A stretch of 28,671 bases of DNA from Crocosphaera sp. Lineage in GTDB: Bacteria; Cyanobacteriota; Cyanobacteriia; Cyanobacteriales; Microcystaceae. The stretch spans positions 1 through 28,671 of the forward strand of contig JASJDW010000039.1 in the NCBI GenBank assembly GCA_030064955.1, in the 5' to 3' direction. Positions within the stretch are counted from its first letter, which is position 1; every line of letters begins with the position of its first letter. The notes below the pieces were generated by a model that saw only the letters and a program-made list of their open reading frames with translations, had not been told where the DNA came from and searched no databases. The translations under genes were made by a program, and so were the position numbers. Below, in pieces: positions 1-28,671 of the stretch.

Positions 1-2
1 AT

Positions 3-619: not shown

Positions 620-627
620 GTCTACCC

Positions 628-2511
628 CTAGTTGAGAGTAGGCATTTTAAACTGGTCTAAAAATATGCCAAAAGTAAGAGGAATAATCAATAAATCTAGC
701 TCAAAAGGAAGATTCAGTCGAAAATCTTTTTGCTCATATTTTTTTCTAATATTTTTGATCATCTCTGGATTAAAGTAACCTTGTTTTTTAATTAATTGAC
801 TTGATAAGATATCATTAATATATTCTCGATTAGCTTTGAATAACTCAGGGCTACCAGGAGTATGAAAAGCAAATTTTTCTCTGGTAATAATTTCAGAAGG
901 AAGAAAATTTTTTCCTATCTGTTTTAAGATATATTTTTCGGTTAATTGATTTAATTTTAAATCGGGAGGTATTTCTTTAGAAAATTCAACTATATTTATA
1001 TCTAAAAAGGGATAACGAGCTTCAACAGAATTAGCGAGAGCCATGCGATCGCCGTGATCAGACACTAAATGATCTGATAATCTTAACTTAAAATCTAGAT
1101 AGGAGCGTTGATGAATATAATGTCGAGATTGTAGTTTCTTTGGATTAACTAATTCAAAATTGAGACAATCAAATTGATTAAATCTTTCATTAAGTTCTAA
1201 AGAATATAAAGCCAGCTTTGTTTCTCGATAAGCATAGAGATCCTTTTCATAAAAAATACGACTATCTCCCCAAACTTTCAGCCTTAACTCTTCTTCTAAT
1301 ACCGTTTCCCAATTATAATTATTTATAGTCTGAGAAGAATCACTTTTTTGAGCTTGATCAAAACGATAACCGACATATCCAGCAAATAATTCATCGGCAC
1401 CTTCACCCGTTAAAATAGCTTTGATATTATTACTATTTACACAGTTTGAAAGAGCTAAAGATGCTGTATTATAGGTTTCTTTGAGAGGACATTCAGAATG
1501 ATAAATAGCTTTTGCCAAACCTTCACTAATACTGTGTCTATCAAAATTAAGATTATGATGTCTAAAATTGTTCAATTGCTTCAATAAAATGTCACGATAA
1601 TCCCCTTCACATATATCTTTATCAGTAAACCCAATGGAAAAAGAATACATTTGAGTATCTGAACAAATTTTCTGAGCAATTGCTGCTATTAACGAAGAAT
1701 CTAATCCTCCGCTAATATACATTCCAACAGGAACATCAGCTTGTAATCGATATTTGATAGATTGAATTAATATTTCTTGTAATTTTTCTGTATAATATTC
1801 TTTTGATAAATAAACAGGCTCTTCCCCAATTTTGGGATAGTCTAAATCCCAATATTCTGTCAGCTTAACTTGGCAATCTTTAATGGTCAAATAATGTCCA
1901 CTTTTGAGACTTTTTATATTTTTAAACATTGTCCTTGGACTGACCAAACCCGGAAAAGTTAAAACTTGATCTAACCCTGTTAAATCAACTTCACGAACCA
2001 CAAGGGGATGAGCTAAAATTGCTTTTATTTCTGAAGCAAAAATCAAAATATTATCAACAATTGTATAAAATAAAGGACAAATTCCCATGTGATCTCTAGC
2101 TAACATTAAGGTCTGTTCTTTGCGATCGTACAGAACAAACGCAAATTGACCGTTAAGTTTATTTAAAAATTTATGGCCATATTCTTCATATAAATGGACT
2201 AAGACTTCTACATCAGTATTTGTCCGAAATTTATGACCTTTTTTCTGTAAATTTTCCCTGAGTTCACGATAGTTAAATATCTCTCCGTTACAAACCAAGA
2301 CGATTGAATGATCTTCATTATAAAGAGGTTGTTCTCCCCCTTCTAAATCAACTAAACTCAATCTGCGAAAACCCATTCCACCATAGTTTCCCAGAAAATA
2401 GCCCGATGAATCTGGCCCCCGATGAATTATCGTATTTGCCATAGCAACTAAAATATTTTTTTGGGGACTTCGCTCTTTTTTAATATCAAAATATCCGCAA
2501 ATGCCACACAT
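628..2511 (-). CDS. asnB: Asparagine synthetase (glutamine-hydrolysing), AsnB family. It is the last gene of the cluster and is probably a tailoring or precursor amidotransferase.
   Basis: ATG at 2511. The N-terminal MCGICGYF supplies the Cys2 nucleophile of class II (Ntn) glutamine amidotransferases. The PP-loop ATP pyrophosphatase motif YISGGLDSS is present. The 627-aa length is typical of AsnB. Confidence 0.9.
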   Translation of the reverse strand: MCGICGYFDIKKERSPQKNILVAMANTIIHRGPDSSGYFLGNYGGMGFRRLSLVDLEGGEQPLYNEDHSIVLVCNGEIFNYRELRENLQKKGHKFRTNTDVEVLVHLYEEYGHKFLNKLNGQFAFVLYDRKEQTLMLARDHMGICPLFYTIVDNILIFASEIKAILAHPLVVREVDLTGLDQVLTFPGLVSPRTMFKNIKSLKSGHYLTIKDCQVKLTEYWDLDYPKIGEEPVYLSKEYYTEKLQEILIQSIKYRLQADVPVGMYISGGLDSSLIAAIAQKICSDTQMYSFSIGFTDKDICEGDYRDILLKQLNNFRHHNLNFDRHSISEGLAKAIYHSECPLKETYNTASLALSNCVNSNNIKAILTGEGADELFAGYVGYRFDQAQKSDSSQTINNYNWETVLEEELRLKVWGDSRIFYEKDLYAYRETKLALYSLELNERFNQFDCLNFELVNPKKLQSRHYIHQRSYLDFKLRLSDHLVSDHGDRMALANSVEARYPFLDINIVEFSKEIPPDLKLNQLTEKYILKQIGKNFLPSEIITREKFAFHTPGSPELFKANREYINDILSSQLIKKQGYFNPEMIKNIRKKYEQKDFRLNLPFELDLLIIPLTFGIFLDQFKMPTLN

Positions 2512-2548
2512 ACAATTTCCCTGAATAATTGAATAATAGAGACTATAG

Positions 2549-2610
2549 CAGAAGTCAGAAGTGTGAAGTTCCTCGCTACGCTGCGGCGCGACTGCACAGA
2601 AGTCAGAAGT
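2549..2610. repeat. A 14-bp direct repeat (cagaagtcagaagt, itself 2x heptamer CAGAAGT) flanking a 34-bp GC-rich core.
   Basis: cagaagtcagaagt occurs at 2549-2562 and again at 2597-2610. The intervening 2563-2596 (gtgaagttcctcgctacgctgcggcgcgactgca) is conspicuously GC-rich in an AT-rich intergenic region. Confidence 0.8.
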
Positions 2611-2626
2611 AAAAGACTTAAAAATA

Positions 2627-5600
2627 CTAGGTTATAATCAATTTTAGTTGATTAGCTAATTCTTGAACATAGGGTTCAGCTAACATCGTTATGTGATCCC
2701 CAGGAACGTCATAAACGTCTACTGGTTCAGGGGTCAATTCACTCCACCCCAAGTCTGGTTGGCGAAAACTTTGAGAAAATACCCCATCAGAATCTTCAAC
2801 TAATGGCCTTGCTGCTCGCAAAAGGGTAATTTTGCCTGGATAAATTTGAGGGATATACTCAATTAACGCTTGGTGACTGGCTTTCTGAACTGCCAAGAGG
2901 GAACAAATCATTTGCTCTCCTGCGTCTGGCGGAATGAGATTACCTTGTCTCAATTTTGCTAAAAAGTAGCTATATTGCGCTGCTGAATTCAATTGCTGGA
3001 GTTCTGTATAATCAACTTCTAAGTGAATTCCAAAAAAGCGTTCTAAAACCTGCGCTCGTTTCACTAACCATTTTGCATCATCAATTGATTCAACAACCTG
3101 TCCATGAATCGGGGCAGGTGTATCCATAATCACCAGTAAGGCGATCGCTTGTCCTTGTTTGTGTAGTTGTTGAGCCATTTCCAAAGCAACCAGTCCCCCA
3201 AAGGAGTGTCCTCCCAACAAGTAAGGACCACAAGGCTGTATCGTTTTCACCGCTTCAATGTAATAACTTGCCAAGTCAGGGATGCTAGTATAAGGGGATT
3301 TTTGTCCGTCCATTCCAGGGGCTTGCAGGGCGTAGAGAGGCTGATTGGAACTGAGATAACGTCCTAAAGCAATATATCCTAACGCATTACCCCCAATGGG
3401 ATGAGCCAAGAATAAAGGGGTCTGAGAACCTGAGCTTTGGATAGTAACTAAAGGAGACCAAGAGGCAACAGCAGATTGAGCGCGTAAAATTGTCGCCATT
3501 GCTTCAATTGTCCCATTTTCAAAAAGAATCGATAGGGGTAATTCAATCTGGAACTGTTGTTCAATCAGAGCGATTAACCGTAACGCTAGTAAAGAATGAC
3601 CCCCAACGTCAAAAAAGTTATCGGTGACACCAATGGGATGAATCTTGAGTACCTCTTCCCAAATTTGCACAAGCTTAAGCTCTATACTGTCACGAGAGGT
3701 AATCAGCATGTTTGCTGAGGAGTGTCTATTATAATCTGGCTTAGGCAGTCTCTTGCGATCCACCTTTCCGTTGGGGGTTAAGGGCAAAGTATCTAAAGTC
3801 ATGATCCAAGAAGGAATCATATAATTCGGTAAATAACCCTTGAGGTAGTCCTTGAGTTTTTGTCCTTCAAGATCAAGGCCATCTTGAGGGACAATGTAAG
3901 CGACTAACTGCCTACCTATGGGGGTTTCATCAGCGATAACCACACAGTGCTGCACCTCTGGATATTGGCCAAGTCTTGTTTCAATTTCTCCTAATTCGAT
4001 ACGAAATCCGCGAATTTTAACTTGATGGTCAATTCTACCGAGAAATTCAATGGAACCGTCTTGATGATAACGAGCTAAATCGCCAGTTTTATATAATTTT
4101 TCTGAGGTAGACCCATTGAAGAAAGGATTAGGCAGGAATTGTTGCGCTGTCAAGTCTGGTTGATTCAAATAACCTTGTGCGAGTCCAATCCCACCAATAT
4201 ACAGTTCTCCTGGTACGCCAATGGGAACGGGTTGAAGGTAGGGATCGAGAATATAAACTTGGGTATTGGCAATTGGGCGACCAATAGAGGGTTGCACTTG
4301 GGAGTGAGTACATTCGGCAATGGTGGCACAAACAGTGGTTTCCGTTGGGCCATAAGCATTGAAAAAACGACAACGATGAGACCAACGAGCAACAAGATCG
4401 GCAGAACAAGCTTCCCCTGCAACAATTAATGTCTGCAAAGCGGGAAGTTCTTCCTCTGGTAGCATGGCTAACATAGAGGGGGGTAAGGTGATGGTTGTAA
4501 TGGATTGCTCTCGTAAATGTTGCCATAATTTGACGGGATTAGACAGAATATCACGACTCACTAAGCAAAGAGTTGCCCCTCTCACTAATGCCATAAAAAT
4601 CTCACTGATTGAAGCATCAAAGCTCATGGAGGCAAATTGCAGGACACGACTATCTTCTTGAACGGCAAAGGTTTCTATCTGGGCAAGGGCTAGGTTACAT
4701 AACCCGCGATGAGCCACGAGAACCCCTTTCGGAAGACCTGTAGAACCAGACGTATAAATAATGTAGGCAGGATGGTGGGCTTTAATCTTCAGATTCGGGT
4801 TAATCTGGCTGTATTGCTCTACTTCTTGCTGATTTTGGTCTAAACAAATGATGGTAATTTTTTCTGAGGTTTGCCAACGGTTTAATGAGGTTTCCGTGAG
4901 GATAATTGGCAAGTTGGCATCTTCTACCATAAAGGCCAAACGTTCTTGAGGATAGGTGGGATCTAAGGGAACATAAACTCCCCCTGTTTTGAGAATGCCT
5001 AAGAGAGCGATCATCATTAATGGCGATCGCTCTAGAGCCATTCCTATGTGATCGCCAGGTTTTACGCCTAATGAGCGTAAATAGTGAGCTAATTGATTAG
5101 CTTGGATATTCAACTGCTGATAGGTCATTAAGCGATCATTAAAGGTTAAGGCGATCGCCTCTGGGTTACGGTTAACTTGCCCTTCAAATAGCTGATGAAT
5201 GCACACATCATCGGGATAGTCTTTTTGAGTTTGATTCCAGTCTTGGATTAACTGTTGAGATTCAGCTTGCGTCAATAAGGGCAATTCATCCAATGACTGT
5301 TGAGGATTATTGACAATAGCGGTTAATAGGGTTTGAAAATGCCCAAACATACGAGTAATTGTCGTAGCCTTAAACAAATTTGTTCGATATTCCCATCGAC
5401 TACTTAATCCTTCTTCGGTCTCTTTTAAAGATAACGTTAAATCTAATTTCGCTCTCTTGGTTTCTACGGAAAAAGAACGTAAGCTTAAACCTGGCAATTT
5501 TAATTCTGTATTGGGGACATTATAGAAGACAAAGCCCACTTGAAATAAAGGGGAATGGCTTAAGTTTCTTTCGGGTTGTAATTCTTCAACTAATTTCTCG

Positions 5601-6793
5601 AAGGGTAAATCTTGATGAGCATAAGCAGCGAGGGCCACTTCTCGCACCTTAGCTAAGAGGGACACAAAGGAGAGGTCTCCAGAAAGCTGAGTTCGTAAGA
5701 CTAAAGTATTGACAAAGCAGCCAATTAATGGTTCTAATTCTGGCTGAGAACGGCCGGCTGTAGCTGTTCCCACCAGCAAGTCTTCTTGGCGGGTATAACG
5801 ATAAAGTAGTGTTTTAAAGGCTGCTAATAGGGTCATAAATAGCGTAACCCCTTGTTGCTGACTGAAGGTTTTTAGGGCATTGCTGAGGGGTTGTGACAGA
5901 AGAAAGGACTGGCTATCTCCTTCAAAGGAAGAGGATGATGATGGGGGATAATCGGTAGGCAATTGTAGGTAGGGGAGTTGGCCTTGTAGAGTTTGTTTCC
6001 AATAACTCAGTTGTCGATTTAAAACATCTCCTTGTAACCACTTTTGTTGCCAAACGGCAAAATCTTTATATTGGAGCGGTAATTTAGGCAATGAAGCAGG
6101 ATTACCATTGTATTTTGCCTCATATAATGCCTTTAATTCTTTAACCAGTATTGCGGTAGACCAAGCATCAAAAACAAGATGATGAAGGGTTAACACTAAT
6201 ATGTACTCAAATTTAGCTAAGTGTAGCAGGGTTGCTTTTAATAAGGGAGCATTAGCTAAATTGAAGGGTTTTTGCGCCTCTTCTGTAAGTAATAACGTGA
6301 TTGCTTCGGGTTGCTGGGGTTGGGGAATTTGTTGAAGATTTAAGTGCTTGAGGGTTAATGTTACCTCTGAATGAATCACTTGTCTTGGCTGTTCGTTGAC
6401 GACGTTAATGCTAGTCCGCAAACTTTCGTGACGTTGGATAATTTCATTCAAACACTGTTCTAATCTGTCTACTTTAAGGGGTCCTCGCAGGGTAATTCCA
6501 CCACAAATATGATAAACAGAAGGATCACGAATTAACTGTTCTAAAAACCAGAGACGCTGTTGGGTAAAAGAAAGGGGAAAATGAGACTCTCTATGGACTT
6601 GGGCAGTTATTTGGGGCGGTTTTCCCTGATTTTTTTGTAATATTTCAATGATTTCTGTTTTTTTTTCCGCTATCTGACTTAATAACTGAGATGTCATTGC
6701 TCCTTGTGGCGCATGATACCGCAGACGATCGCCATCTAGCCACAACTGAATGTTACTACCACGCAATGTTGATAAAAGCTCAATAACTGTCAT
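2627..6793 (-). CDS. NRPS termination module: TubC-type N-terminal docking domain, then C-A(Tyr-like)-T-TE.
   Basis: The track ORF starts at a TTG (6850). The ATG at 6793 overlaps the upstream stop as ATGA and opens with MTVIELLSTLRGSNIQLWLDGDRLRYHAPQG, a docking domain. C domain: PLSFTQQRLWFLEQL and HHLVFDAWS. A domain: YTSGSTGLPKG, NAYGPTETT, YKTGDLARY, GRIDHQVKIRG, with hand-extracted code DASTIAAVCK. T domain: DVGGHSLLA. TE domain: GHSFGG, an Asp in IMDTPAP and a His in PGDHITM. Confidence 0.95.
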   Translation of the reverse strand: MTVIELLSTLRGSNIQLWLDGDRLRYHAPQGAMTSQLLSQIAEKKTEIIEILQKNQGKPPQITAQVHRESHFPLSFTQQRLWFLEQLIRDPSVYHICGGITLRGPLKVDRLEQCLNEIIQRHESLRTSINVVNEQPRQVIHSEVTLTLKHLNLQQIPQPQQPEAITLLLTEEAQKPFNLANAPLLKATLLHLAKFEYILVLTLHHLVFDAWSTAILVKELKALYEAKYNGNPASLPKLPLQYKDFAVWQQKWLQGDVLNRQLSYWKQTLQGQLPYLQLPTDYPPSSSSSFEGDSQSFLLSQPLSNALKTFSQQQGVTLFMTLLAAFKTLLYRYTRQEDLLVGTATAGRSQPELEPLIGCFVNTLVLRTQLSGDLSFVSLLAKVREVALAAYAHQDLPFEKLVEELQPERNLSHSPLFQVGFVFYNVPNTELKLPGLSLRSFSVETKRAKLDLTLSLKETEEGLSSRWEYRTNLFKATTITRMFGHFQTLLTAIVNNPQQSLDELPLLTQAESQQLIQDWNQTQKDYPDDVCIHQLFEGQVNRNPEAIALTFNDRLMTYQQLNIQANQLAHYLRSLGVKPGDHIGMALERSPLMMIALLGILKTGGVYVPLDPTYPQERLAFMVEDANLPIILTETSLNRWQTSEKITIICLDQNQQEVEQYSQINPNLKIKAHHPAYIIYTSGSTGLPKGVLVAHRGLCNLALAQIETFAVQEDSRVLQFASMSFDASISEIFMALVRGATLCLVSRDILSNPVKLWQHLREQSITTITLPPSMLAMLPEEELPALQTLIVAGEACSADLVARWSHRCRFFNAYGPTETTVCATIAECTHSQVQPSIGRPIANTQVYILDPYLQPVPIGVPGELYIGGIGLAQGYLNQPDLTAQQFLPNPFFNGSTSEKLYKTGDLARYHQDGSIEFLGRIDHQVKIRGFRIELGEIETRLGQYPEVQHCVVIADETPIGRQLVAYIVPQDGLDLEGQKLKDYLKGYLPNYMIPSWIMTLDTLPLTPNGKVDRKRLPKPDYNRHSSANMLITSRDSIELKLVQIWEEVLKIHPIGVTDNFFDVGGHSLLALRLIALIEQQFQIELPLSILFENGTIEAMATILRAQSAVASWSPLVTIQSSGSQTPLFLAHPIGGNALGYIALGRYLSSNQPLYALQAPGMDGQKSPYTSIPDLASYYIEAVKTIQPCGPYLLGGHSFGGLVALEMAQQLHKQGQAIALLVIMDTPAPIHGQVVESIDDAKWLVKRAQVLERFFGIHLEVDYTELQQLNSAAQYSYFLAKLRQGNLIPPDAGEQMICSLLAVQKASHQALIEYIPQIYPGKITLLRAARPLVEDSDGVFSQSFRQPDLGWSELTPEPVDVYDVPGDHITMLAEPYVQELANQLKLIIT

Positions 6794-8673
6794 AAGATTC
6801 CTTCCTCTGTTTGACCATCCAAGGATCTTGGCGAAGTTTCGGTTAACCAACGTAGTGCCTCAATACTTTCCGCTTGAGCGGCTAATGTTGGTGACTCAAA
6901 AAGAATTCGCAAGGGAACTTCGACTTGAAACGCTTTTCCCATACGAGTGACTAATTGTGTGGCTAATAGGGAATGTCCCCCTAAGGCAAAAAAGTTATCA
7001 TTAATCCCCACTTGTTTAATATTTAGTACCTTCATCCAAATTTGCGCTAACTCTTGTTCTAGTGGCGTTCTAGGGGCAATAAACTGACGATTTACGGTTT
7101 GACTAGGAGAGGGAAGTGCTTTTTTGTCTACTTTTCCTGAAATGGTTCGCGGTAACCTCTCCATGACGACAAACGATGAGGGAATCATGATCGTTGGCAA
7201 GAATTGGCTTAAAAAGTCTTTTAATCGGGCAAATTCAAGCTCTTGGTTGAGAACAACATAAGCACAGAGATATTTATTACCATTGGTGTCGTTAATATCG
7301 ATAACAACTGCATCTTTTACCGCTTGATGTAAGCGTAAATAATCTTCAATTTCTCCTAATTCTATTCTCACGCCTCGAATTTTTACTTGTTTATCTTTGC
7401 GTCCTAAATATTCAAAATTTCCATCGGGTAAAATGCGACCAAGATCCCCTGTTTTGTAGACAATATCCGTGGGATTATTACTAAAAGGATTTGGAATAAA
7501 TACCTGATTAGTTAACTCAGGTTGTTGATAATATCCTAAAGTACGATAAGGTGTGCGAATATAAATTTCTCCTACCATTCCTATCGGAGAAGCTTGTCCG
7601 CTTTCATCAACAATTAATGCAGTTGCTCCTGTCATGGGTTTTCCAATGGGAATGGTTCGCCGTTGCTGATCTGAAGACTGAATAAAATAAAAGAATTTTG
7701 TCATGGTTGTTTCAGAAGCACCATAGAGATTCACTAATTGAATTCTGTCTCCATAAATATCACACCACCGCGCAATATCTCCACTGTAAATGGTTTCTCC
7801 TGATAAGAGAATATACTGTAAATCTGAAAATAATTGTGGCGTTAAGTCTTCATTGAGAAGGGTACGAAATAAAGAGGGAACACAGTGAATCAAATTAATG
7901 TTTTGAGCGTCTATCCATCTGACTAATTTTCTTCCATCAAGAATAGTATCTACTGAGTCTGGTACACAAACCACTCCCCCAGAACACAAAGGAAGAAACA
8001 TATCTCTGAGAAAAGCATCAAAAGATGGACTTGTTAATTGACTTACGCGAGTCGATTTTTGAATTTTTAAGGTTTCAATTTCCCAGTTAATAAAATGGGC
8101 GATCGCTTTCAGACGACCTGCTATTCCTTTTGGTTTTCCAGTTGAACCAGATGTAAAATAAAGATAGCATATATCATCGGGTTGTGAGTCAATCGTAGGG
8201 AGATCTGAAACAGAATAGGCTAAATAGTTTCCCAAGTAGCTTAGGTTTGATTTTTGGGTTTCAAACATTTGTTTTTCTCTAGAAATTAATCTGAGTTGAA
8301 AAGATTCAATTTCGGTTAAATTATTGATTTTTTCAAATCCCATTGCATCAATAATTAACCACTGCAAGTTAATGTCTGAAATAATTGTTTTAAGTCGAAA
8401 ATCAGGAAGATTTGGATCTAAGGGAACAAAAACACAGCCTGCTTTTAAAATAGCAATAATCGCTATAATAATCTCAGCCGAATCTTGAGAACAAATCCCG
8501 ATTAAAGTTCCTTTCGATGCACCCTGATCAATCAAGAAATTAGCCAGTTGATTAGATTGCTGTTCAATTTGGTCATAGGTGAAATGTCGTGATTCATAAC
8601 GAATGGCAATCTTATCATTAAACTGTGCTGCATTGTGGCTAAACCAAGCTTGAATGTGAGTTTTTTTGTCCAT
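6790..8673 (-). CDS. Stand-alone NRPS adenylation-thiolation (A-T) didomain. Its predicted substrate is an acidic (D-)amino acid.
   Basis: A domain: FTSGSTGKPKG, SPSFDAFLRDMF, LYGASETT, YKTGDLGR, GRKDKQVKIRG. T domain: ALGGHSLLA. The hand-extracted code is DARHLSLMTK. The track start at 8718 is a TTG. The first ATG (MDKKTHIQAWF) is at 8673, which is the start used here. The stop overlaps the next gene's ATG. Confidence 0.9.
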   Translation of the reverse strand: MDKKTHIQAWFSHNAAQFNDKIAIRYESRHFTYDQIEQQSNQLANFLIDQGASKGTLIGICSQDSAEIIIAIIAILKAGCVFVPLDPNLPDFRLKTIISDINLQWLIIDAMGFEKINNLTEIESFQLRLISREKQMFETQKSNLSYLGNYLAYSVSDLPTIDSQPDDICYLYFTSGSTGKPKGIAGRLKAIAHFINWEIETLKIQKSTRVSQLTSPSFDAFLRDMFLPLCSGGVVCVPDSVDTILDGRKLVRWIDAQNINLIHCVPSLFRTLLNEDLTPQLFSDLQYILLSGETIYSGDIARWCDIYGDRIQLVNLYGASETTMTKFFYFIQSSDQQRRTIPIGKPMTGATALIVDESGQASPIGMVGEIYIRTPYRTLGYYQQPELTNQVFIPNPFSNNPTDIVYKTGDLGRILPDGNFEYLGRKDKQVKIRGVRIELGEIEDYLRLHQAVKDAVVIDINDTNGNKYLCAYVVLNQELEFARLKDFLSQFLPTIMIPSSFVVMERLPRTISGKVDKKALPSPSQTVNRQFIAPRTPLEQELAQIWMKVLNIKQVGINDNFFALGGHSLLATQLVTRMGKAFQVEVPLRILFESPTLAAQAESIEALRWLTETSPRSLDGQTEEGIL

Positions 8674-8711
8674 ATTGATAAGGATAAATTGTGTTAGTTG
8701 TCGAGAAATAT

Positions 8712-9452
8712 TTAGCAATTATAATTTGCTTGAGATAGGGACAATTCAGGTAAAGTCCGAGCTAAAATAGTTAAAGGATCTAGAAAAATTTTTTCTTTTC
8801 TATTTTGATTCATCTGTAAATCCCAATATTTACTCAGTAAATGAATTTCTGTGCATCCGACAACAAACTTTTCTATATTATACTTGGTTTTTAAGGATTC
8901 TAAAATAGGAAAACACTCTTTTATTGTTCCTTGCACTTTAAGATGGTAAATCATTTGATGAATTATATTTTGATCTTCTTCATCCAGTAAAATTAGATAA
9001 TTTTTAGCCATTGGCCAAAATTCATGATTTTGAAAAATTTCTAATTTTTTCGTTCCTTTTGAACAAATCAAGAGATGTTTCTCTTTTTGCTTTAAAATAT
9101 CAATCATTATAATATCTATTAAAGAAATAATTCGCTTTTTAAATTCATCAGGAAGTTGCGGTAACAAGTAATGAGAAGTTATACAACAAATAATAATTTT
9201 TGAGACATTTAGTTGGCATAATTTCGAGAGAGTGTCAATTAATTTTTCCAAAAAATAATGATAATCTTGCTTAAGAAACACTTCGGTTCTATCAGGAAAA
9301 CTTGGATCAGAATAAACGATTATTTTAGGAAATTCTTGTTCTCGTTGCTTGTCAAGATTATATTCATATATTGTCTTTAAAAATTCTGCTGATGCTAAGG
9401 GGCCCATTCCCCCTAAAATTCCTATCATTTCTGATTGATTACTTTGTTTCAT
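8712..9452 (-). CDS. Aspartate/glutamate racemase family protein (McyF-like).
   Basis: ATG at 9452. The N-terminal IGILGGMGPLASAEF motif is present. The two catalytic-Cys motifs of PLP-independent Asp/Glu racemases are present: IIICCITSHY (compare PCNTAH) and VVGCTEIHLL (compare GCTE). Length is 246 aa. Confidence 0.85.
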   Translation of the reverse strand: MKQSNQSEMIGILGGMGPLASAEFLKTIYEYNLDKQREQEFPKIIVYSDPSFPDRTEVFLKQDYHYFLEKLIDTLSKLCQLNVSKIIICCITSHYLLPQLPDEFKKRIISLIDIIMIDILKQKEKHLLICSKGTKKLEIFQNHEFWPMAKNYLILLDEEDQNIIHQMIYHLKVQGTIKECFPILESLKTKYNIEKFVVGCTEIHLLSKYWDLQMNQNRKEKIFLDPLTILARTLPELSLSQANYNC

Positions 9453-9497
9453 TGATGTTATACTAAATCTGGTTATCGTAGGTTACTTATGAAGAAA

Positions 9498-9520
9498 GGC
9501 AATAGGCAATAGGCAATAGG
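9498..9520. repeat. Tandem heptamer GGCAATA x3 (plus GG). It is a STRR-like short tandem repeat in the 201-bp intergenic gap.
   Basis: Direct reading gives ggcaata (9498-9504), ggcaata (9505-9511) and ggcaata (9512-9518), then gg. Heptanucleotide tandem repeats are a known class of cyanobacterial intergenic repeat. Confidence 0.8.
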
Positions 9521-9576
9521 ATAAATAAATAAGTAGCTTTTGAGATGAGGATTTGGTATTAGTGACTGTTAAAATT

Positions 9577-9604
9577 ATCATAATTGTTTTTACTTGTTAC
9601 TCAA
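9577..9604 (-). promoter_or_regulatory. Candidate sigma70-type internal promoter (TTGAGT, 16-nt spacer, TATGAT) upstream of the racemase gene.
   Basis: The minus strand reads ttgagt (9604-9599), a 16-nt spacer, then tatgat (9582-9577). This is ~125 nt upstream of the ATG at 9452, inside the only large (201 bp) intergenic gap of the cluster. It is a motif match only, and AT-rich DNA gives such matches by chance. Confidence 0.2.
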
Positions 9605-9653
9605 CTAATTTGCTTTAAAAGCATATAAGAAATTCATGATTTCTGCTAGTGTT

Positions 9654-15731: not shown

Positions 15732-15827
15732 GGGTTATCTGAGTAAACTAAATAACTAAATTTCCTTTCTAGCTAATGGAATCAGTCATAAAATTTCAAT
15801 TGATATTTTTAAATCTTAAATAACTGA

Positions 15828-16640
15828 TTAGCTCCAATAATAAATACTTTGATTATCATGAGACACAGCTAAAAAGCCGCCTATAGTAATACGCTTTTTG
15901 CTTCCAGAGACATCTGCAACTTTATGCATAATTGTACTTCCTTTAAAGATAACCATATCTCCGACATCGGGATTAAAGAGCGTTTGAGGAGATTTATCTA
16001 AGTTCTTTTTGAGGTCAGCAAAAAACTCCTTGAGTTCTTTTTTTTCTTTATCTATTTTACTCAGAAACACATCATAAATAACTAATTCTCCTCCTAATTC
16101 TGGTTTATCAATTACTAAAAAATAACTCATGGAATCAGGTAAATCTGCTTGGGTTTTCAAATAATCATAACCAGTATTATATAAAGCTTCACTACCAGTA
16201 TGGGCAGGAATTCCACCTTGCTGTGGTTGTACAAATCGAATGGTTGCTGGCGTGTAGTAATTACCATTTTCTTGAGGGATTTTTATTTTCCTTCCTCCTG
16301 AAATTTGACTAAAAACTGATTCAACGTTTGTTTCAAAATCAGTAACAAATACCTTTTTTAAAGTGGCTCTCAAATCTTTTGATTCTTGAAAATAATCATA
16401 ATCACTCATGACTTTTTGAAATAGATTGAGTCCTATAGTTTCTCCATACATCGTAGGATGTAAGTTAGTTTGATAAAATGAAAGTTTTTGGCATACCTCA
16501 TCCATTTCTTGCTGTGAAAACACCTGTTTAATAATTATTCCATGAAGCTTTTCTTGATAAATTTGAGAGATTAAATCTTGAGAGGCAGTCAAGTCTTTTA
16601 AAGAAAGTGTAAGCCAGTTTAGTTGAGTTTGTTTGTTCAT
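15828..16640 (-). CDS. Stand-alone Fe(II)/2-oxoglutarate enzyme of the P4H-like fold. It is WelO5/AmbO5-like and has His-x-Gly in place of His-x-Asp, so it is a putative halogenase.
   Basis: ATIRFVQPQQGGIPAHTGSE aligns to the P4H-type block ending pHxD, with Gly156 where the Asp should be. This is followed by SYFLVIDKPELGGELVIYD, VGDMVIFKGSTIMHKV (distal His246) and KKRITIGGF (2OG-binding Arg). The C-terminus IGGFLAVSHDNQSIYYWS and the block YYTPATIR match my recollection of WelO5. The track start at 16661 is a TTG. The first ATG is at 16640. Confidence 0.75.
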   Translation of the reverse strand: MNKQTQLNWLTLSLKDLTASQDLISQIYQEKLHGIIIKQVFSQQEMDEVCQKLSFYQTNLHPTMYGETIGLNLFQKVMSDYDYFQESKDLRATLKKVFVTDFETNVESVFSQISGGRKIKIPQENGNYYTPATIRFVQPQQGGIPAHTGSEALYNTGYDYLKTQADLPDSMSYFLVIDKPELGGELVIYDVFLSKIDKEKKELKEFFADLKKNLDKSPQTLFNPDVGDMVIFKGSTIMHKVADVSGSKKRITIGGFLAVSHDNQSIYYWS

Positions 16641-16686
16641 AATTGTTCTTAAGTTTTTCAAGATTTTTATGGGGGTTAAACTTGTC

Positions 16687-17721
16687 TTAATTTGAGTAAG
16701 ACTGCGCCATTCCTACCAGAACTTTTCGTTCACCAAGATAAGGCATTCTTCCGTGACAAACTAGCATATTATCCAACAAAAGAATATCTCCTGTTTGCCA
16801 AGGAAAAATTATGGTTTCTTGTTGATAACAATGACAAATTTCAGCAATAATGGAAGGGTCAATGGGAGATCCATCTCCGTAATAAGCATTACGGGGTAAG
16901 TCTTCTTCTTTATACTCAGTTAAAAACAAATCTTGAATTTGGGGATCTAGACTAGATATATGGAATAAGTGCGCCTGATTAAACCATATTTTTTCTTTAG
17001 TCTGGGGATGAATAGCAGTTGCTTGACAGACTTGCCAAGTTTTTAGGCGATCGCCTTCGTTCCATTGCCAGTTAATTCTCTGCTGACGACAATAGGCTTC
17101 GACGACTGATTTTTCCTCAGTCTGAAAGACATTTTGCCAACTTAAATCTAATCCTTTACTATAGTTTCGCACATATAGAATCTTTTTTTCTTCAAATTGA
17201 GCAACAAGTTTCGGGGATAGTCTTTTGAAGATTTTTCGACTGTCTGCGATCGGGGTATTCCCCCCCTCTTTCGCTGCTTTTTGGCAAAAAAAGGCTATTT
17301 TAAGCGGCCAAGTACAACTATAGGCCATTTCGTTATGTAAAGGAATCGTTTGATGAGCAGGATATTCGGTTGAGGTGTGAATTTTTTCGGTTACCTGCGA
17401 TCGTGGTGTTGAACGATAAGTATAATCTAATAAATCTCCCCAAATTATTTGAAGTAATTGTTCAAATTCTACTAGCTTTTGGAGCGGGAAATTACGCAAT
17501 AAAATGCCACCATATTGATGTAACTTTTCTTCAATAAAGTTACGGTTGATTTCTAACCAACTGCGTAAATTCAAGCCTTCTAAGGTAGGTTGAATAATTA
17601 AAGGAATCTTTTCTCTAAAATAGCTGCTTTTAATTAATCCATGAGCTTCAATGTTAACAGATTTACGCCTAACGAGGCTTAACTTTTGATGTCCTAAATT
17701 TTTGAGTTTTTGTTGAGTCAT
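16687..17721 (-). CDS. TauD/TfdA-family Fe(II)/2OG dioxygenase, SyrP-like. It is a putative hydroxylase acting on a carrier-protein-bound amino acid.
   Basis: ATG at 17721. The facial triad is intact: IPLHNEMAY (His129-x-Glu131) and LVCHGRMPY (His323). GGNTPIADS follows the triad as in TauD/SyrP-type enzymes. The N-terminal LNLRSWLEINRNFIEEKLHQYGGILLRNF is typical of NRPS-associated TauD homologues. Confidence 0.85.
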   Translation of the reverse strand: MTQQKLKNLGHQKLSLVRRKSVNIEAHGLIKSSYFREKIPLIIQPTLEGLNLRSWLEINRNFIEEKLHQYGGILLRNFPLQKLVEFEQLLQIIWGDLLDYTYRSTPRSQVTEKIHTSTEYPAHQTIPLHNEMAYSCTWPLKIAFFCQKAAKEGGNTPIADSRKIFKRLSPKLVAQFEEKKILYVRNYSKGLDLSWQNVFQTEEKSVVEAYCRQQRINWQWNEGDRLKTWQVCQATAIHPQTKEKIWFNQAHLFHISSLDPQIQDLFLTEYKEEDLPRNAYYGDGSPIDPSIIAEICHCYQQETIIFPWQTGDILLLDNMLVCHGRMPYLGERKVLVGMAQSYSN

Positions 17722-17793
17722 AATAGGTTTTAGGTTGGGGTATTCTGAAGGTTAATCTAATTGAGATAAGTAATCAATCTTGATTTATTTATT

Positions 17794-18357
17794 CTAGAGA
17801 TTTTTAGCTAAGTCCAATGTAAATTTTTGTTGAACACCTGTCTTGACAGAATCAGACAAATATTTAAAAACTTTACGATAGCGAAGACGGTAAAATAATA
17901 TATAAATTCCAATTTTATGATGCCAAGGTACATAATCAAATTCTTCGATAACATTTGCCATATGTAAGATAACTAAATTGAGCCATTCTGAATAACTAAT
18001 CGTGATTTTATCAGAGGTTAACCGATTAATAATACAAATTTCCGACCTTTGGTTAGGTTGAATGTCAAAATAATTTTCTCGTTGTTTACAAATGCAAAAT
18101 AAATAGACAATTTTCTCAGCTTCTTCTCCAATCGCTTCTTGTAATTCTTTTCGTTGACAAAATTTTAAAATGTAGTTTTTTTGGGTTCCTTCTGTGCCAT
18201 AAAAAGAATGAAAATACCCAGCCAAACAGAGAGTAGGAGCACATTTCCATTTTTTTAATAAATCTCCGGTTCCGACTAAATGCTCATAAAACGTCCTTTT
18301 TGTATGAACAATTCTATGGGTTTGATAAGATTTGAGCAGATATAAAACATTTTCCAT
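17794..18357 (-). CDS. Hypothetical protein with an HD-domain-like His-rich N-terminal motif. Function is unknown.
   Basis: ATG at 18357. The 187-aa ORF is co-directional and tightly packed between cluster genes. The motif string HRIVHTKRTFYEHLVGTGDLL...LAGYFHSFYGTEG resembles the H...HD metal motif of HD-superfamily proteins, but with HS instead of HD. I cannot make a confident family assignment from sequence alone. Confidence 0.6.
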   Translation of the reverse strand: MENVLYLLKSYQTHRIVHTKRTFYEHLVGTGDLLKKWKCAPTLCLAGYFHSFYGTEGTQKNYILKFCQRKELQEAIGEEAEKIVYLFCICKQRENYFDIQPNQRSEICIINRLTSDKITISYSEWLNLVILHMANVIEEFDYVPWHHKIGIYILFYRLRYRKVFKYLSDSVKTGVQQKFTLDLAKNL

Positions 18358-18407
18358 TGTCTTTACTTTAATTATTAATTGTTAATTTTTAAATACTTTT
18401 AGAGTCT

Positions 18408-25589: not shown

Positions 25590-25602
25590 AGATAAATATT
25601 CA

Positions 25603-27051
25603 TTAAATAAGTTTTTTTTGCGCTAATTTCTCAGATAAAGTATCAATATTAGGATATTCGTACATTAAAGCGGGGTTAAGGTGGTTTCCTAACCAATCAC
25701 TGAGATCTCCTATCATTCCCACCCCTTCTGCGGAGGATAAACCATAGCTTTGAAAGGAACTGGTAATGTCGATTTCTTCTTCATCTATTTCTAAGAGTTC
25801 TGCTAAATAGGCGATTAACCAAGTTTCTATTTCAGAGGAGGTGTTAGCCCGTGTTGAGGTAGACTTAATCTCATTGTTTGAGCTTTGATGGCTATTTTTG
25901 CGAGAAAGATTACCTACTAATTGGATATATTCCTCCATTGCTTCCTGGTTGCTCATTCCTCGATATTGATTCCAGGTACTCCATTGGATATACTTGCGAG
26001 GATGTAGAATAGGGTTAGGTTCGCTTTCTTGGCAATCCCCTTCAATGGCTTGTTTTTCTAGGGCATAAATGTCTAGTTTTTGTTTATCTTCAGGAATCTC
26101 GACTTGCTCGAATTTTACTTGATTTAAACAGGTTTGAAATTGTAATTCGAGATCGTTTAAATCATGTCCTTGGCGAATTAAATTATGTCCATATTTATCT
26201 TCTCCTGAGACTAATAAACAGTAATGTCGCTGAATATTATGTCCATTTTCATCAATAAAATTCCCTTGCCAACGATAAGGATAAACTTGGGTACTAGGAC
26301 GCACATAACGCCCAATAATTGCTAAACGGCGACGGTTAGAGCGATTCGGAAATGAGCGGTGCATGACTTTTTCGGTAAAAATAATGGCTTGTCCTGCTTT
26401 AATTGGAACGGTTTCTAAGGGCCAATCATTTTCATTAAAGTCATAGGAAAGGGAATATTTTTGTTCCCTTTGCCAGACAGTTTTATGGGCACTAATTCCG
26501 GCAAATACTCCTTCTTTGGCAGGAATACTAGCGGGTAACATGGGAAAGATTTTTTGATGGGAACCGTTAGCAAACTGCATACAACCATTCTCTAAGTCTG
26601 CATCGTCTAAAGCAACCCAAACTGTTAGATTAATCGAGTCTTCATTCGCATCATAAACTAGGGTTTTTTTCTGATAATCAATATCACTAGACGTATAATA
26701 TTCCTTAGCTTGATGCCATTTAATTTCTCCTTGCCCTGGCAATTTACAAAATACGTTAGTATACCATAACAAGAGATCATTTCCTGCAATTTGCTGAACT
26801 CTTTTGACCAGATCTAAATCTTGAAATAAATTAGCAATGGGTTGATGGAATAAATGTAAATCTCTTGGAGTTTCCAAATTAAATACATTGTTATAAAACC
26901 CCATGATTTCTTGTCCGTCTGCTTCAACGATCAAGCGACTATAGGTTTCTAAACAGTTTTTAGCATCAGTCAGTTTTGAGGATTCAAAGATGTCTAAAGG
27001 TCCAACCCATCCCTTTTCTTGAAAATGATTAATCTCCTTTAATGTCAACAT
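25603..27051 (-). CDS. HctB-like tridomain: PhyH-family Fe(II)/2OG halogenase (His-x-Ala), acyl-CoA-binding-protein (ACBP) domain, then ACP.
   Basis: ATG at 27051. GEIKWHQAKEYY gives His113-x-Ala115 where PhyH hydroxylases have WHQD. The distal motif is VMHRSFPNRSNRRR (His231). Residues ~300-385 (LDIYALEKQAIEGD...RKYIQWSTWNQYRGMSNQEAMEEYIQLV) align with canonical ACBP (IYSHYKQATVGD...[26 protein letters not shown]). The C-terminal carrier motif is SYGLSSAEG. Confidence 0.85.
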   Translation of the reverse strand: MLTLKEINHFQEKGWVGPLDIFESSKLTDAKNCLETYSRLIVEADGQEIMGFYNNVFNLETPRDLHLFHQPIANLFQDLDLVKRVQQIAGNDLLLWYTNVFCKLPGQGEIKWHQAKEYYTSSDIDYQKKTLVYDANEDSINLTVWVALDDADLENGCMQFANGSHQKIFPMLPASIPAKEGVFAGISAHKTVWQREQKYSLSYDFNENDWPLETVPIKAGQAIIFTEKVMHRSFPNRSNRRRLAIIGRYVRPSTQVYPYRWQGNFIDENGHNIQRHYCLLVSGEDKYGHNLIRQGHDLNDLELQFQTCLNQVKFEQVEIPEDKQKLDIYALEKQAIEGDCQESEPNPILHPRKYIQWSTWNQYRGMSNQEAMEEYIQLVGNLSRKNSHQSSNNEIKSTSTRANTSSEIETWLIAYLAELLEIDEEEIDITSSFQSYGLSSAEGVGMIGDLSDWLGNHLNPALMYEYPNIDTLSEKLAQKKLI

Positions 27052-27066
27052 ATTTTTTGTGAGTAA

Positions 27067-28671
27067 TTATGTAGATAAAATAAGCTTTTTTTGTTGAGAT
27101 GGTAACGGGTTTAATTGATGATGTAGGAATTGTTGACGACAAGTTTGACGCTGAATTTTGCCGCTAGAGGTTTTCGATAAACTTCCCTGTCTAATTAAAA
27201 CAATCTGATACACCCGTAAATCATGTTCTGCTGCGATCGCTTCTCGAATTCTCCCTTTGACTTGAGCCACCTCTAAATCTTTGCTGTGGCTGCGTTTTAT
27301 TTCTTGCACAACCACTAAACGTTCTTCTCCCTTGATTTCTACTGAAAAAGCTGCACCAAATCCTTCTCGTAAAGCGGGATGGCTTTTTTCTACCGTTAGC
27401 TCAATATCTTGGGGATAATGATTGCGTCCTTCTATAATAATCAAGTCTTTGAGTCTTCCCGTCACAAATAATTGTCCTTCATAGAAAAATCCTAAATCAC
27501 CAGTTCGCAAAAAAGGGCCTTCTCCTGTGTCCTGACGATAAGCTTGAAAGATTAGCTTAGTAGCTTGGGGATTATTCCAATATCCTTGAGCAACAGTCGC
27601 TCCACGTACCCAAATTTCTCCGATCTCTGTGGGTTGACACCCTGTTAGATGCTGAGGATGAACAATCTGGATTTGAGTATCAATTTCACTGCTACCACAT
27701 CCGACTTGGATTTGTGTTGGTAAATTTTTGGGTGGTGTGACTTGCTCTTGCTCTGTTCCTAATGCTTCTTTGACTACTTTTACCTGATGTTGTTCTAAGG
27801 CTTCTGTTTCTAGAGCTAAAAACAAAGGAGACTCTGCTTGCCTAAGTGCCGTAACTTTTAAGGTAGCTTCTGCTAACCCATATCCTGGGGAAAATGTTGA
27901 TTGTTTAAAACCATAAGGTGCAAAGGTTCGACTAAATAATTCTAGGGTTTCGGCCCTGACCCGTTGCGCACCGTTAAGTGCCATTTGCCAGCAACTTAAG
28001 TCTAAATCCTTGGCATCGGTGGGTTTAAATTTTCGCACACATAGATCATAAGCAAAATTAGGTGCGGCACTATGGGTGGCTTGGAAACGGGAAATTATTT
28101 TTAACCAGTTAATCGGTTTGAGTAGAAATGTTACAGGAGAGAGTAAATAGCAAGGAATTCCTACCAACAGAGGGGTTAAAATTCCATAGACTAACCCCAA
28201 ATCATGAAAAGTTGGCAACCAAGAAACGATTTTACTATCCTGACTATGATTCCAACCGCGATCGAGATCTTCACAGTTGATCATTAAATTACCATGACTG
28301 ACCATGACCCCTTTTGGCTCACCTGTAGAACCAGAGGTATATTGGAGTAAAGCTAGGGTTTCTGAGTTTATTTTTAGGGAATTCCCGTTTCTCTGGGTAA
28401 GATTAATAGGACTTGTCGTATCTAACCAAATTAAATGACCTAAATCTCGCCACTTATCTTTGTTTTTGGCTATTTTACTGGTGGTTAAAGCAAATTTTGC
28501 CTGTGCATTGCTAACAATTGAGTGCAACCGTTTTAAAGATTGATTAGGGCGCGGAGGATAAGCAGGAACCGCAACCATTCCAGCAGCAAAACAACCAAAT
28601 AAGGCACGAATAAACTCTAAACCAGGAGGATACAATAGTAAGACGCGATCCCCAGCCGCTCCTAACTGTTG
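27067..28671 (-). CDS. Fatty acyl-AMP ligase (FAAL), 5'-truncated by the window edge.
   Basis: The track start at 28635 is a TTG inside the gene. The frame stays open to 28671 and reads QQLGAAGDRVLLLYPPGLEF. Motifs: LQYTSGSTGEPKG, GYGLAEATL, LRTGDLGFF, GRLKDLIIIEGRNHYPQDIE, SGKIQR. It lies directly upstream of a carrier protein and a PKS, the usual FAAL context. Confidence 0.9.
   Translation of the reverse strand, partial: QQLGAAGDRVLLLYPPGLEFIRALFGCFAAGMVAVPAYPPRPNQSLKRLHSIVSNAQAKFALTTSKIAKNKDKWRDLGHLIWLDTTSPINLTQRNGNSLKINSETLALLQYTSGSTGEPKGVMVSHGNLMINCEDLDRGWNHSQDSKIVSWLPTFHDLGLVYGILTPLLVGIPCYLLSPVTFLLKPINWLKIISRFQATHSAAPNFAYDLCVRKFKPTDAKDLDLSCWQMALNGAQRVRAETLELFSRTFAPYGFKQSTFSPGYGLAEATLKVTALRQAESPLFLALETEALEQHQVKVVKEALGTEQEQVTPPKNLPTQIQVGCGSSEIDTQIQIVHPQHLTGCQPTEIGEIWVRGATVAQGYWNNPQATKLIFQAYRQDTGEGPFLRTGDLGFFYEGQLFVTGRLKDLIIIEGRNHYPQDIELTVEKSHPALREGFGAAFSVEIKGEERLVVVQEIKRSHSKDLEVAQVKGRIREAIAAEHDLRVYQIVLIRQGSLSKTSSGKIQRQTCRQQFLHHQLNPLPSQQKKLILST

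Follow-up and report, generated by a model that had tools for sequence, protein, structure and literature searches.

A fatty acyl-AMP ligase/polyketide/peptide assembly line of Crocosphaera is likely coupled to a class II lanthipeptide system in a conserved orphan cyanobacterial gene cluster

A contig of Crocosphaera sp. (JASJDW010000039.1, assembly GCA_030064955.1) encodes a lipopeptide assembly line built from a fatty acyl-AMP ligase (FAAL), a polyketide synthase (PKS) and nonribosomal peptide synthetases (NRPSs), and raises the question of whether this line is a pathway of its own or one part of a larger system. In the window, by which we mean the whole 28,671-nucleotide stretch analyzed, the line takes up positions 628-28671 as 11 co-directional minus-strand open reading frames (ORFs), whose order from the FAAL end is FAAL, Hal-ACBP-ACP (a halogenase fused to two further domains), KS-AT-ACP-AMT-cMT-C, DUF6817, TauD, WelO5-like, NRPS1, racemase, A-T, C-A-T-TE and AsnB (AMT, aminotransferase; cMT, C-methyltransferase; C, condensation; A, adenylation; T, thiolation; E, epimerization; TE, thioesterase; coordinates are in Table 1). 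A sequence-only reading had taken these genes as a complete collinear line and their combination as one that it could assign to no characterized pathway. Every gene and domain that it named was reproduced by our ORF listing and Pfam scans, and its collinear logic is sound, but the boundaries were drawn too narrowly: the source scaffold adds a Nif11-type precursor, a LanM, two WelO5-type genes and a 156-aa protein upstream. Nor is the combination a one-off, since protein searches, a genome scan and contig look-ups recovered ten related loci that carry the cluster in at least five gene orders. The cluster is a real, intact, orphan biosynthetic gene cluster (BGC), and we consider it likely that the window holds the assembly-line part of a conserved orphan cyanobacterial BGC family, in which the FAAL/PKS/NRPS line is coupled to a class II lanthipeptide system.

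The proteins of the window are found in identical form on a 68.8-kb metagenome scaffold (ENA ERZ23486730 scaffold_115; also NCBI JAAUYI01), the source scaffold. The sequence-only reading had placed further genes beyond the right edge of the window, where the first gene is cut, and this is borne out, as the window holds 534 of the 609 FAAL codons, the full-length protein (609 aa, L007) is encoded on the source scaffold, and more cluster genes lie upstream of it in the order LanM(-) p156(-) WelO5c(-), LanA(+) WelO5b(+) FAAL(+). The LanM protein matches LicM2 (1e-72) and CylM (1e-44) and joins a dehydratase domain to a LanC-like cyclase with its zinc ligands, as is characteristic of class II lanthipeptide systems; the zinc-ligand motifs, WCHG and CCG, are kept in five loci. 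The LanA-like precursor has a conserved core (...MMDSYCSTTCHLGSVVGK) and is shared by eight loci, where its motif is YExxPMxxxMMDSYC(S/N)(T/S)TCH(L/I)(G/A)S(V/A)VG, in which the core DSYC(S/N)(T/S)TCH carries invariant Cys residues, and Lys is often C-terminal.

The query of the genome scan was the upstream WelO5 protein, and the rearranged versions of the cluster were reached through protein searches and contig look-ups. The related loci come from Okeania, Trichodesmium, Anabaena, Calothrix and metagenomes. Four of them, on two contigs of Okeania sp. KiyG1, in Trichodesmium sp. MAG_R02 and on a Lake Mendota metagenome-assembled genome contig, share the order of the source scaffold, LanM(-) p156(-) WelO5c(-) LanA(+) WelO5b(+) FAAL HctB-like PKS, at 64-81% amino acid identity. 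In another locus, L009, the genes for LanA, WelO5b, FAAL, the HctB-like protein, KS-AT-ACP and AMT-cMT-C are followed by LanM, which starts on the preceding stop codon. A 33.6-kb Logan contig (SRR31200893_8269; L094/L096) has two divergent operons, LanA-WelO5b-FAAL-HctB-PKS-WelO5a-NRPS1 and WelO5c-p154-LanM-racemase-A-T-C-A-T-TE-AsnB. Anabaena sp. GCA_963920905.1 (L097/L098) has LanA-WelO5-FAAL-HctB-PKS on one strand and, on the other, three WelO5 paralogs-NRPS1-AsnB-racemase-A-T-C-A-T-TE-LanM; the visible part of the locus in Calothrix sp. CCY 0018 (L099) is an NRPS-to-LanM operon as in Anabaena. Locus L095 contains A-T, C-A-T-TE, AsnB, TauD, two WelO5 genes and NRPS1, with the PKS on the opposite strand. 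Because at least five rearrangements have not separated the gene set, because LanM is found within NRPS operons in three loci and in L009 shares a start/stop overlap with the PKS gene, and because LanA is always directly upstream of WelO5b-FAAL, we regard it as quite probable that the lipopeptide and lanthipeptide gene sets belong to one BGC.

The competing view is that the 11 genes are a full pathway for a stand-alone lipopeptide, and that the lanthipeptide genes are an unrelated neighbor cluster. Cyanobacteria often carry adjacent yet independent BGCs, the line runs collinearly from FAAL to TE and is self-sufficient, and in Crocosphaera LanM, p156 and WelO5c are on the strand opposite to the lipopeptide operon, upstream of it. 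However, the neighborhood is kept in all ten related loci with enough visible sequence, and the placement of LanM in the NRPS operons and at the PKS stop codon and that of LanA, always on the same strand as WelO5b-FAAL, speak against two independent clusters, and we consider the stand-alone pathway unlikely. Several points nevertheless weigh against the coupling of the two systems that we favor. The NRPS line, with its own TE, could work without the lanthipeptide genes, and co-clustering would not prove a shared product. In the Okeania, Trichodesmium and Mendota loci the visible sequence ends inside the PKS and covers the upstream half only, and the 21 kb of L095 that were read show neither LanA nor LanM. 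The precursor is a borderline match to Nif11 (23.7 bits against a cut-off of 23.8), and neither a GG/GA leader cleavage site in the precursor nor a LanT was seen. Finally, all of the substrate assignments given below are predictions, those of the Asp, DARH and Tyr codes being made by comparison with reference codes.

Beyond sharing a cluster, the two systems might share a molecule, with the lipopeptide or a chlorinated lipid joined covalently to the LanM-modified peptide, possibly by TE aminolysis, by AsnB-type ligation, or by alkylation of a thiol or amine, at a chlorinated carbon or at a dehydro-residue. Hybrids of PKS or fatty acid synthase products with peptides that are made on ribosomes and modified after translation (RiPPs) exist, namely the lipolanthines and goadvionins. 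Here, the interleaved operons, the unusually conserved precursor core with its invariant Cys and frequent C-terminal Lys, the universal and highly conserved AsnB, and the multiple halogenases, which could make leaving groups, are all in line with a hybrid. However, no GNAT-type gene or other known RiPP acyltransferase was seen in any of the loci whose gene content was read, the retained Cys2 of AsnB argues for ammonia transfer and not for ligation of a peptide, and the line has its own TE. Moreover, the Anabaena WelO5b ortholog has HxE and other paralogs have HxD or HxN, making an obligatory chlorine leaving group unlikely at those sites. We therefore see a covalent hybrid as possible but doubtful. 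The likeness to the lipolanthines and goadvionins is one of concept only, in that one cluster brings together a ribosomal precursor with a synthetase of the lanthionine type and a PKS line that builds a lipid: those systems rely on class III/IV-type synthetases and LanD-type decarboxylases, with a GNAT to join lipid and peptide, whereas this one has a class II ProcM-like LanM, a full NRPS with TE and four Fe/2OG (iron- and 2-oxoglutarate-dependent) halogenase-type enzymes. We entertain only tentatively that lipopeptide and peptide are joined by a GNAT-free route, or that the ribosomal peptide serves as a scaffold, with at least one WelO5-type enzyme acting on the ribosomal peptide. If true, the hybrid would be the first between a class II LanM system and an NRPS/PKS, and the enzyme would be an Fe/2OG halogenase or hydroxylase that works on a ribosomal peptide. 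To our knowledge, no aliphatic Fe/2OG halogenase of RiPPs has been described, and none was found in the literature search, which likewise returned, from PMC and bioRxiv, no lanthipeptide with a WelO5-type enzyme and no product from Okeania sp. KiyG1.

As for the product of the line within this coupled cluster, the collinear prediction made earlier, a chlorinated 3-amino-2-methyl acyl residue followed by D-(OH?)Asp, an acidic D-residue and Tyr, stands up to our analysis of the cMT, the malonyl AT, the E motifs, the racemase and Cys2 of AsnB. Our best reading of the predicted product is a chlorinated 3-amino-2-methyl-acyl–D-Asp(±OH)–β-D-Asp–Tyr lipopeptide, which would be made together with a lanthipeptide. 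The sequences show which genes and domains are present, their catalytic motifs, the A-domain codes and the conserved co-clustering; the substrates, the order of tailoring, the role of the degenerate first condensation domain of NRPS1 (C*) and the target of AsnB are inferred. The FAAL, which scored E 1e-141 against the NCBIfam fatty-acid--AMP ligase families, under their curated cut-offs, would adenylate a fatty acid and load it onto the ACP of the HctB-like protein. This protein has the halogenase-ACBP-ACP architecture of HctB, and its Fe/2OG domain, aligned to CytC3/SyrB2, reads WHQA at the H-x-A site, with Ala in place of the carboxylate ligand; it matches the NCBIfam ‘chlorinating enzyme’ family at E 1e-33, and WHQA is kept in six relatives. 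HctB is described as a halogenase of three domains whose substrates are acyl groups tethered to a carrier (PMC6218459), and 5,5-dichlorohexanoyl-ACP is its product (PMC10088813). We infer that the HctB-like protein is a putative halogenase of the ACP-bound fatty acyl chain, which its HxA domain would chlorinate while the chain is tethered.

The PKS module would then add malonate through KS-AT-ACP, methylate C-2 through the cMT and turn the 3-keto group into an amine through the aminotransferase, which would yield a chlorinated 3-amino-2-methyl-acyl thioester. The sequence motifs of these domains are in place, with TACSS/HGTGT and the Cys and His residues in the KS, a PLP-Lys motif in the AMT, a SAM motif in the cMT and HHIISDG in the C domain. 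The AT motifs, GHSLG...HGFH, are of the malonyl type, and the C-2 methyl group would therefore derive from SAM. The methyltransferase region matches the CurJ cMT (5THY) at E 1.4e-98, followed by DisA, the citrinin PKS and AprA MT2, and by this comparison is a PKS C-methyltransferase. The pair of AMT and monooxygenase domains leads to 3-amino-2-hydroxy units (PMC13252402), and the same logic is found in microginins (PMC12250027); since AMT plus monooxygenase gives 3-amino-2-hydroxy, AMT plus cMT giving a 3-amino-2-methyl unit would be its direct analogue. The start of the line resembles in layout that of hectochlorin (HctA/HctB), with an acyl-activating enzyme followed by a tri-domain Fe/2OG halogenase-ACBP-ACP with HxA, and with a cMT in the next PKS module, so that the carbon skeleton parallels the dichloro-2-methyl-octanoate unit. 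Unlike hectochlorin, an AMT here replaces the KR (3-amino versus 3-hydroxy), and there are no thiazole-forming modules. As a separate observation, a stand-alone AMT-methyltransferase didomain (945 aa, 49% identical) lies between giant PKS genes of an unrelated cluster on a JGI 3300067032 contig, so that the fused AMT-cMT unit occurs as a separate, trans-acting protein as well. A metagenome scan with patterns of the PKS C domain (the generic HHxxxDG region) returned only unrelated NRPS C domains with at most 40% identity. We also rejected the idea that no named genome has an AMT-cMT PKS: the homologs listed included no protein above ~1400 aa and lacked the 2393-aa query itself, and copies exist in Okeania and Trichodesmium.

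A beta-amino lipid at the N-terminus and Tyr at the end suggest a second alternative, a linear peptide of the microginin type that inhibits aminopeptidases or angiotensin-converting enzyme (ACE). The logic of the microginin (mic) cluster is indeed the same, with FAAL, carrier, alkyl-chain halogenase, KS-AT-ACP-AMT, a short series of NRPS modules and a C-terminal Tyr (PMC12250027). However, the mic halogenase is a CylC-type dimetal-carboxylate enzyme (PMC12250027), none of which was found in the window or its flanks, all halogenase candidates here being Fe/2OG enzymes, the one of the starter being of the HctB type. In mic, the AMT is paired with a monooxygenase (2-OH), whereas the domain after the AMT here is the CurJ-like cMT (2-Me), and the 2-hydroxy-3-amino pharmacophore would not be made. 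The mic peptide is neutral and the one predicted here acidic (Asp, iso-Asp), no micG-like ABC transporter is present, and LanA/LanM are not a mic feature. A microginin variant is accordingly rather improbable in our judgment.

In the assembly-line part of the coupled cluster, the C domain of the PKS gene would hand the acyl chain to Asp on NRPS1. The first Condensation-family domain of NRPS1, C*, reads PSLLADRFS where HHxxxDG is expected, while the other C and E domains retain HHxxxDG (HHLLMDG in the E domain, HHHLLLDG in the last C domain of NRPS1). All of the E signatures were found in NRPS1 (PIQQWF, HHLLMDG, EGHGRE, GWFT and FNYLGQ); the E domain would epimerize the Asp, and together with the following DCL-like C domain would imply D-Asp. 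In the TauD protein, LHNE contains an HNE that aligns to the HHE triad of At3g21360, and TauD may be the Asp beta-hydroxylase in this strain; where present, it would probably beta-hydroxylate the Asp. C* may dock trans-acting Fe/2OG enzymes, by analogy with the X domain found in glycopeptide NRPSs and with interface domains in the NRPSs that make beta-OH-Asp siderophores. Judged by its motif, C* stands before A(Asp) without HHxxxDG, and this degenerate motif is kept in all loci with the domain visible, including those without TauD. Because C* is kept without TauD while a WelO5a-type gene is always near NRPS1, C* could serve a WelO5a-type enzyme instead.

These features also underlie a likeness to beta-hydroxy-aspartate lipopeptide siderophores that had been noted from the sequence. 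Cyanochelins are FAAL-primed beta-OH-Asp siderophores (bioRxiv 10.64898/2026.07.24.740629), and the cluster resembles theirs in the FAAL priming with its acyl tail, in the TauD-type oxygenase beside an Asp module, and in the degenerate C domain at the N-terminus, which is similar to an interface domain. The likeness is weakened by the absence of TauD from the fully visible relatives (the SRR31200893 contig and Anabaena) and from what is visible of the locus in Calothrix, though C* and the Asp code are kept; among the related loci a TauD ortholog (72% identity) is seen only in L095. Beta-OH-Asp siderophore BGCs have at least two chelating residues and an adjacent transporter cassette, whereas here there is a single Asp/TauD site and no TonB or ABC siderophore transporter cassette within 10 kb on either side. 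Cyanochelin clusters have two beta-OH-Asp modules and no AMT, lanthipeptide genes or described halogenase, while AMT and lanthipeptide genes are both present here. A cyanochelin-like siderophore is thus very unlikely.

The substrates of the three A domains in the coupled cluster were read from their Stachelhaus positions, by alignment to the GrsA-PheA stretch and manual reading of the A4 region; the control gave DAWTIAAICK. The codes are DLTKVGHVGK for NRPS1, DARHLSLMTK for the stand-alone A-T and DASTIAAVCK for the terminal NRPS, and they are identical across the loci with visible domains except for one V/I exchange in the Anabaena Asp code, DARHLSLMTK being identical in L095 and L096. By comparison with the reference codes, DLTKVGHIGK for Asp, DARHVGIFVK for McyB2 and DAST[IV]AAVCK for Tyr, the predicted substrates are Asp, an acidic D-residue activated at its side chain, as in McyB2, and Tyr. 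The racemase, for which NCBI lists an identical protein annotated as a racemase, occurs together with DARHLSLMTK, a combination that may, at the family level, point to D-iso-Asp, and the stand-alone A-T would load racemase-derived D-Asp through its side-chain (beta) carboxyl. The terminal module (C domain HHLVFDA, TE GHSFG) would add Tyr, and the TE would free the acid or, by cyclization onto the beta-amine, a macrolactam. Separately, the Asp A domain contains a Lys/Asn-rich insertion of ~45 residues between A7 (GYxN) and A8 (YRTGD), at window positions ~13060-13200 (NRPS1 residues ~845-890), which is kept in L094 and L095 and not in Anabaena or Calothrix.

Microcystin/nodularin synthetases (McyE, McyF, McyB2, McyC) offer a parallel for this half of the line, with a PKS module whose cMT and AMT give a 2-methyl-3-amino acid, a dedicated Asp-type racemase, a DARH-type code for a D-acidic residue that, here by prediction, is linked through its side chain, and a terminal C-A-T-TE, which in microcystin cyclizes onto the beta-amine. 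In contrast to them, the starter is a fatty acyl group activated by the FAAL and not the phenyl-derived Adda, there are three amino acid modules, and halogenases, AsnB and LanA/LanM are present. The MT follows the AMT here, presumably unlike the domain order of McyE.

AsnB starts with MCGICG, has the Cys2 nucleophile, begins with MCG in all relatives and passes the equivalog cut-off of NCBIfam TIGR01536 (459 bits against 267), and is therefore a glutamine-dependent amidotransferase, which would amidate one free carboxylate. Its best PDB matches are the hydroxyamidotransferase 7YLZ and AsnB 1CT9, and with 74-78% identity across relatives it is among the best-conserved genes of the cluster. A reading as beta-lactam synthetase was ruled out by Cys2 and the full AsnB-type profile match.

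Three Fe/2OG enzymes with His-x-Ala, His-x-Glu and His-x-Gly had been recognized in the window, and alignment confirms them as WHQA, LHNE and AHTG, respectively. The last of these belongs to WelO5a, which against WelO5 (5J4R) has AHTG at the H-x-G site (HVG in WelO5) and the second His in MHKV. The WelO5a gene adjoins or lies near the start of NRPS1, and this position is kept in L094, L095, L097/98 and L099. The WelO5-type enzymes would add more aliphatic chlorine, or OH in the relatives, for while all three Crocosphaera paralogs have HxG, the orthologs elsewhere have HVD, HFE, HRD or HKN, the glycine being swapped for D, E or N in L095, Anabaena and Calothrix. By comparison of these motifs, this suggests natural switching between a halogenase and a hydroxylase site inside one cluster family. 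The proteins share with WelO5/AmbO5 the Pfam family, HxG, the second His and ~35% identity; they differ in that the known members act on hapalindole-type alkaloids, whereas here three paralogs lie in an NRPS/PKS/RiPP cluster and their orthologs in other genera switch to HxD, HxE and HxN.

Our search of the PMC and bioRxiv literature, which did not cover MIBiG entries, found no described equivalent of the gene set, and cyanochelins, lusichelins, fischerazoles/aranazoles, microginins and puwainaphycins were each rejected, since none has the gene content of the cluster. The same uncharacterized cluster is carried by cyanobacteria that are ecologically dominant or form blooms, in the sea (Crocosphaera, Trichodesmium, Okeania) as well as in fresh or brackish water (Anabaena, Calothrix, Lake Mendota), and its product could be an overlooked, widespread chlorinated metabolite. 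Of interest to enzymology are its route to 2-methyl-3-amino acids by a fused AMT-cMT, up to four putative Fe/2OG halogenases per pathway with apparent natural halogenase/hydroxylase switches between orthologs, and a degenerate C domain to which oxygenases acting in trans may be recruited. Since a precursor peptide and LanM are invariably paired with the line, the cooperation of the two pathways is directly testable, and the cultured strains Anabaena sp. and Calothrix sp. CCY 0018 carry the cluster.

Table 1 Genes and domains of the cluster in the window and on the source scaffold (window coordinates unless stated otherwise).
Feature	Position	Strand	Basis and remarks
FAAL	27067..28671	-	Pfam AMP-binding + AMP-dom_DIP2-like; 5' end cut by window edge
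HctB-like tri-domain protein	25603..27051	-	Pfam PhyH 12-242, ACBP 304-379, PP-binding 411-474
Hybrid PKS/NRPS, 2393 aa	18408..25589	-	Pfam KS, AT, PP-binding, Aminotran_3, Methyltransf_12, Condensation
PKS: KS	24447-25559	-	Pfam
PKS: AT	23136-23984	-	Pfam
PKS: ACP	22584-22787	-	Pfam
PKS: aminotransferase	21063-22133	-	Pfam
PKS: C-methyltransferase	~19866-20837	-	Pfam
PKS: C	18522-19796	-	Pfam
DUF6817 protein, 187 aa, HD-domain-like fold	17794..18357	-	Pfam DUF6817
TauD/TfdA-family Fe/2OG oxygenase, HxE triad	16687..17721	-	Pfam TauD
WelO5a, WelO5-family Fe/2OG halogenase (putative), HxG	15828..16640	-	Pfam WelO5 PF22814, 252.6 bits, cut-off 27
NRPS1, 2025 aa	9654..15731	-	Pfam, three Condensation-family matches + A + T
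NRPS1: C*	~14382-15731	-	Pfam
NRPS1: A (Asp, predicted)	12732-14330	-	Pfam
NRPS1: T	12459-12641	-	Pfam
NRPS1: E	~11052-12419	-	Pfam
NRPS1: DCL-type C	9684-11015	-	Pfam
Asp/Glu-family amino acid racemase	8712..9452	-	Pfam Asp_Glu_race; NCBIfam TIGR00035 asp_race above cut-off
Stand-alone A-T didomain	6790..8673	-	Pfam; code DARHLSLMTK
Terminal NRPS, TubC_N docking-C-A-T-TE	2627..6793	-	Pfam; A code DASTIAAVCK
AsnB, glutamine-hydrolysing asparagine-synthase-type amidotransferase	628..2511	-	Pfam GATase_7 + Asn_synthase
Upstream set LanM, p156, WelO5c, LanA, WelO5b	L007 1556-8208	mixed	Source scaffold, beyond right edge of window
WelO5b, 285 aa, HFG	Upstream of FAAL, source scaffold	FAAL strand	WelO5 family
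LanA-like peptide, 103 aa	Upstream of FAAL, source scaffold	FAAL strand	Nif11-type N-terminus, C-terminus ...MMDSYCSTTCHLATQVGK
WelO5c, 261 aa, HKG	Upstream, source scaffold	opposite to FAAL	WelO5 family
p156, 156 aa, DUF3598_N-like	Upstream, source scaffold	opposite to FAAL	Gene listing
LanM (ProcM-like, class II), 1093 aa	Upstream, source scaffold	opposite to FAAL	Pfam DUF4135 + LANC_like

The sequence-only reading had counted eleven intact genes on the minus strand; the strand is right for all of them, and the count comes to ten intact genes and one cut by the window edge. It had also described gaps of at most 201 bp or overlaps, and the public gene calls for the identical proteins agree, with intergenic distances of 115, -4, 38, 201, 96, 46, 72, 50, 13 and 15 bp. 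Three gene starts fit better at 16640, 8673 and 6793 than at the first TTG. As stated before, no transporter, phosphopantetheinyl transferase (PPTase) or MbtH gene was found in the window by the Pfam scans; tRNA genes and Rfam families were looked for in the window as well, and none were found, and the plus-strand ORFs at 3-389 and 23431-23757 are without family support in Pfam.

The racemase, the AsnB amidotransferase and the 187-aa protein that the earlier reading listed alongside the line are all present, the last of them as a member of DUF6817, a family of ~1800 representative clusters. Its AF2 model reached a pLDDT of 94.6 with a 60-sequence alignment (a single-sequence model, with a pLDDT of 40, was unusable), and in Foldseek it is best matched by small alarmone hydrolases and by the HD hydrolase domains of Rel/SpoT (TM ~0.5, E 4e-3). 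The protein has HS where the HD dyad is usual, and H26, H50, Y53, R69 and E81 are invariant. The gene was sought in L094, L095 and L097-L099 and is absent from them, and a genome scan with exact 8-mers of the protein gave no match; DUF6817 would be an accessory, and the Crocosphaera version of the cluster is the only one in which it was seen.

Two of the related loci call for a remark on their origin. The Lake Mendota contig (L010, JBIPMW010000343.1) was binned as Crocinitomicaceae (Bacteroidota), although it carries the cyanobacterial-type cluster at 63-81% identity, with a GC content of 37.6%, and is probably a mis-binned cyanobacterial contig. In Okeania sp. KiyG1, L011 and L013 are near-identical copies of the locus on different contigs, one of them with LanM and the PKS in pieces; because the assembly was built from four single-amplified genomes (PMC7660993), the two may reflect a duplication in the assembly and not a genuine paralogous locus.

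On the other side of the line, AsnB is followed by an unusually long gap of ~800 bp (window positions 1-627 and L003). Beyond it are three co-directional genes for proteins of 168, 654 and 139-143 aa (L003 11885-15605), which have no Pfam match above cut-off, the 654-aa protein showing a weak chlorophyllase/alpha-beta-hydrolase match, and which were not seen in the visible parts of the other loci. On the source scaffold, these three genes are followed by genes of housekeeping type.

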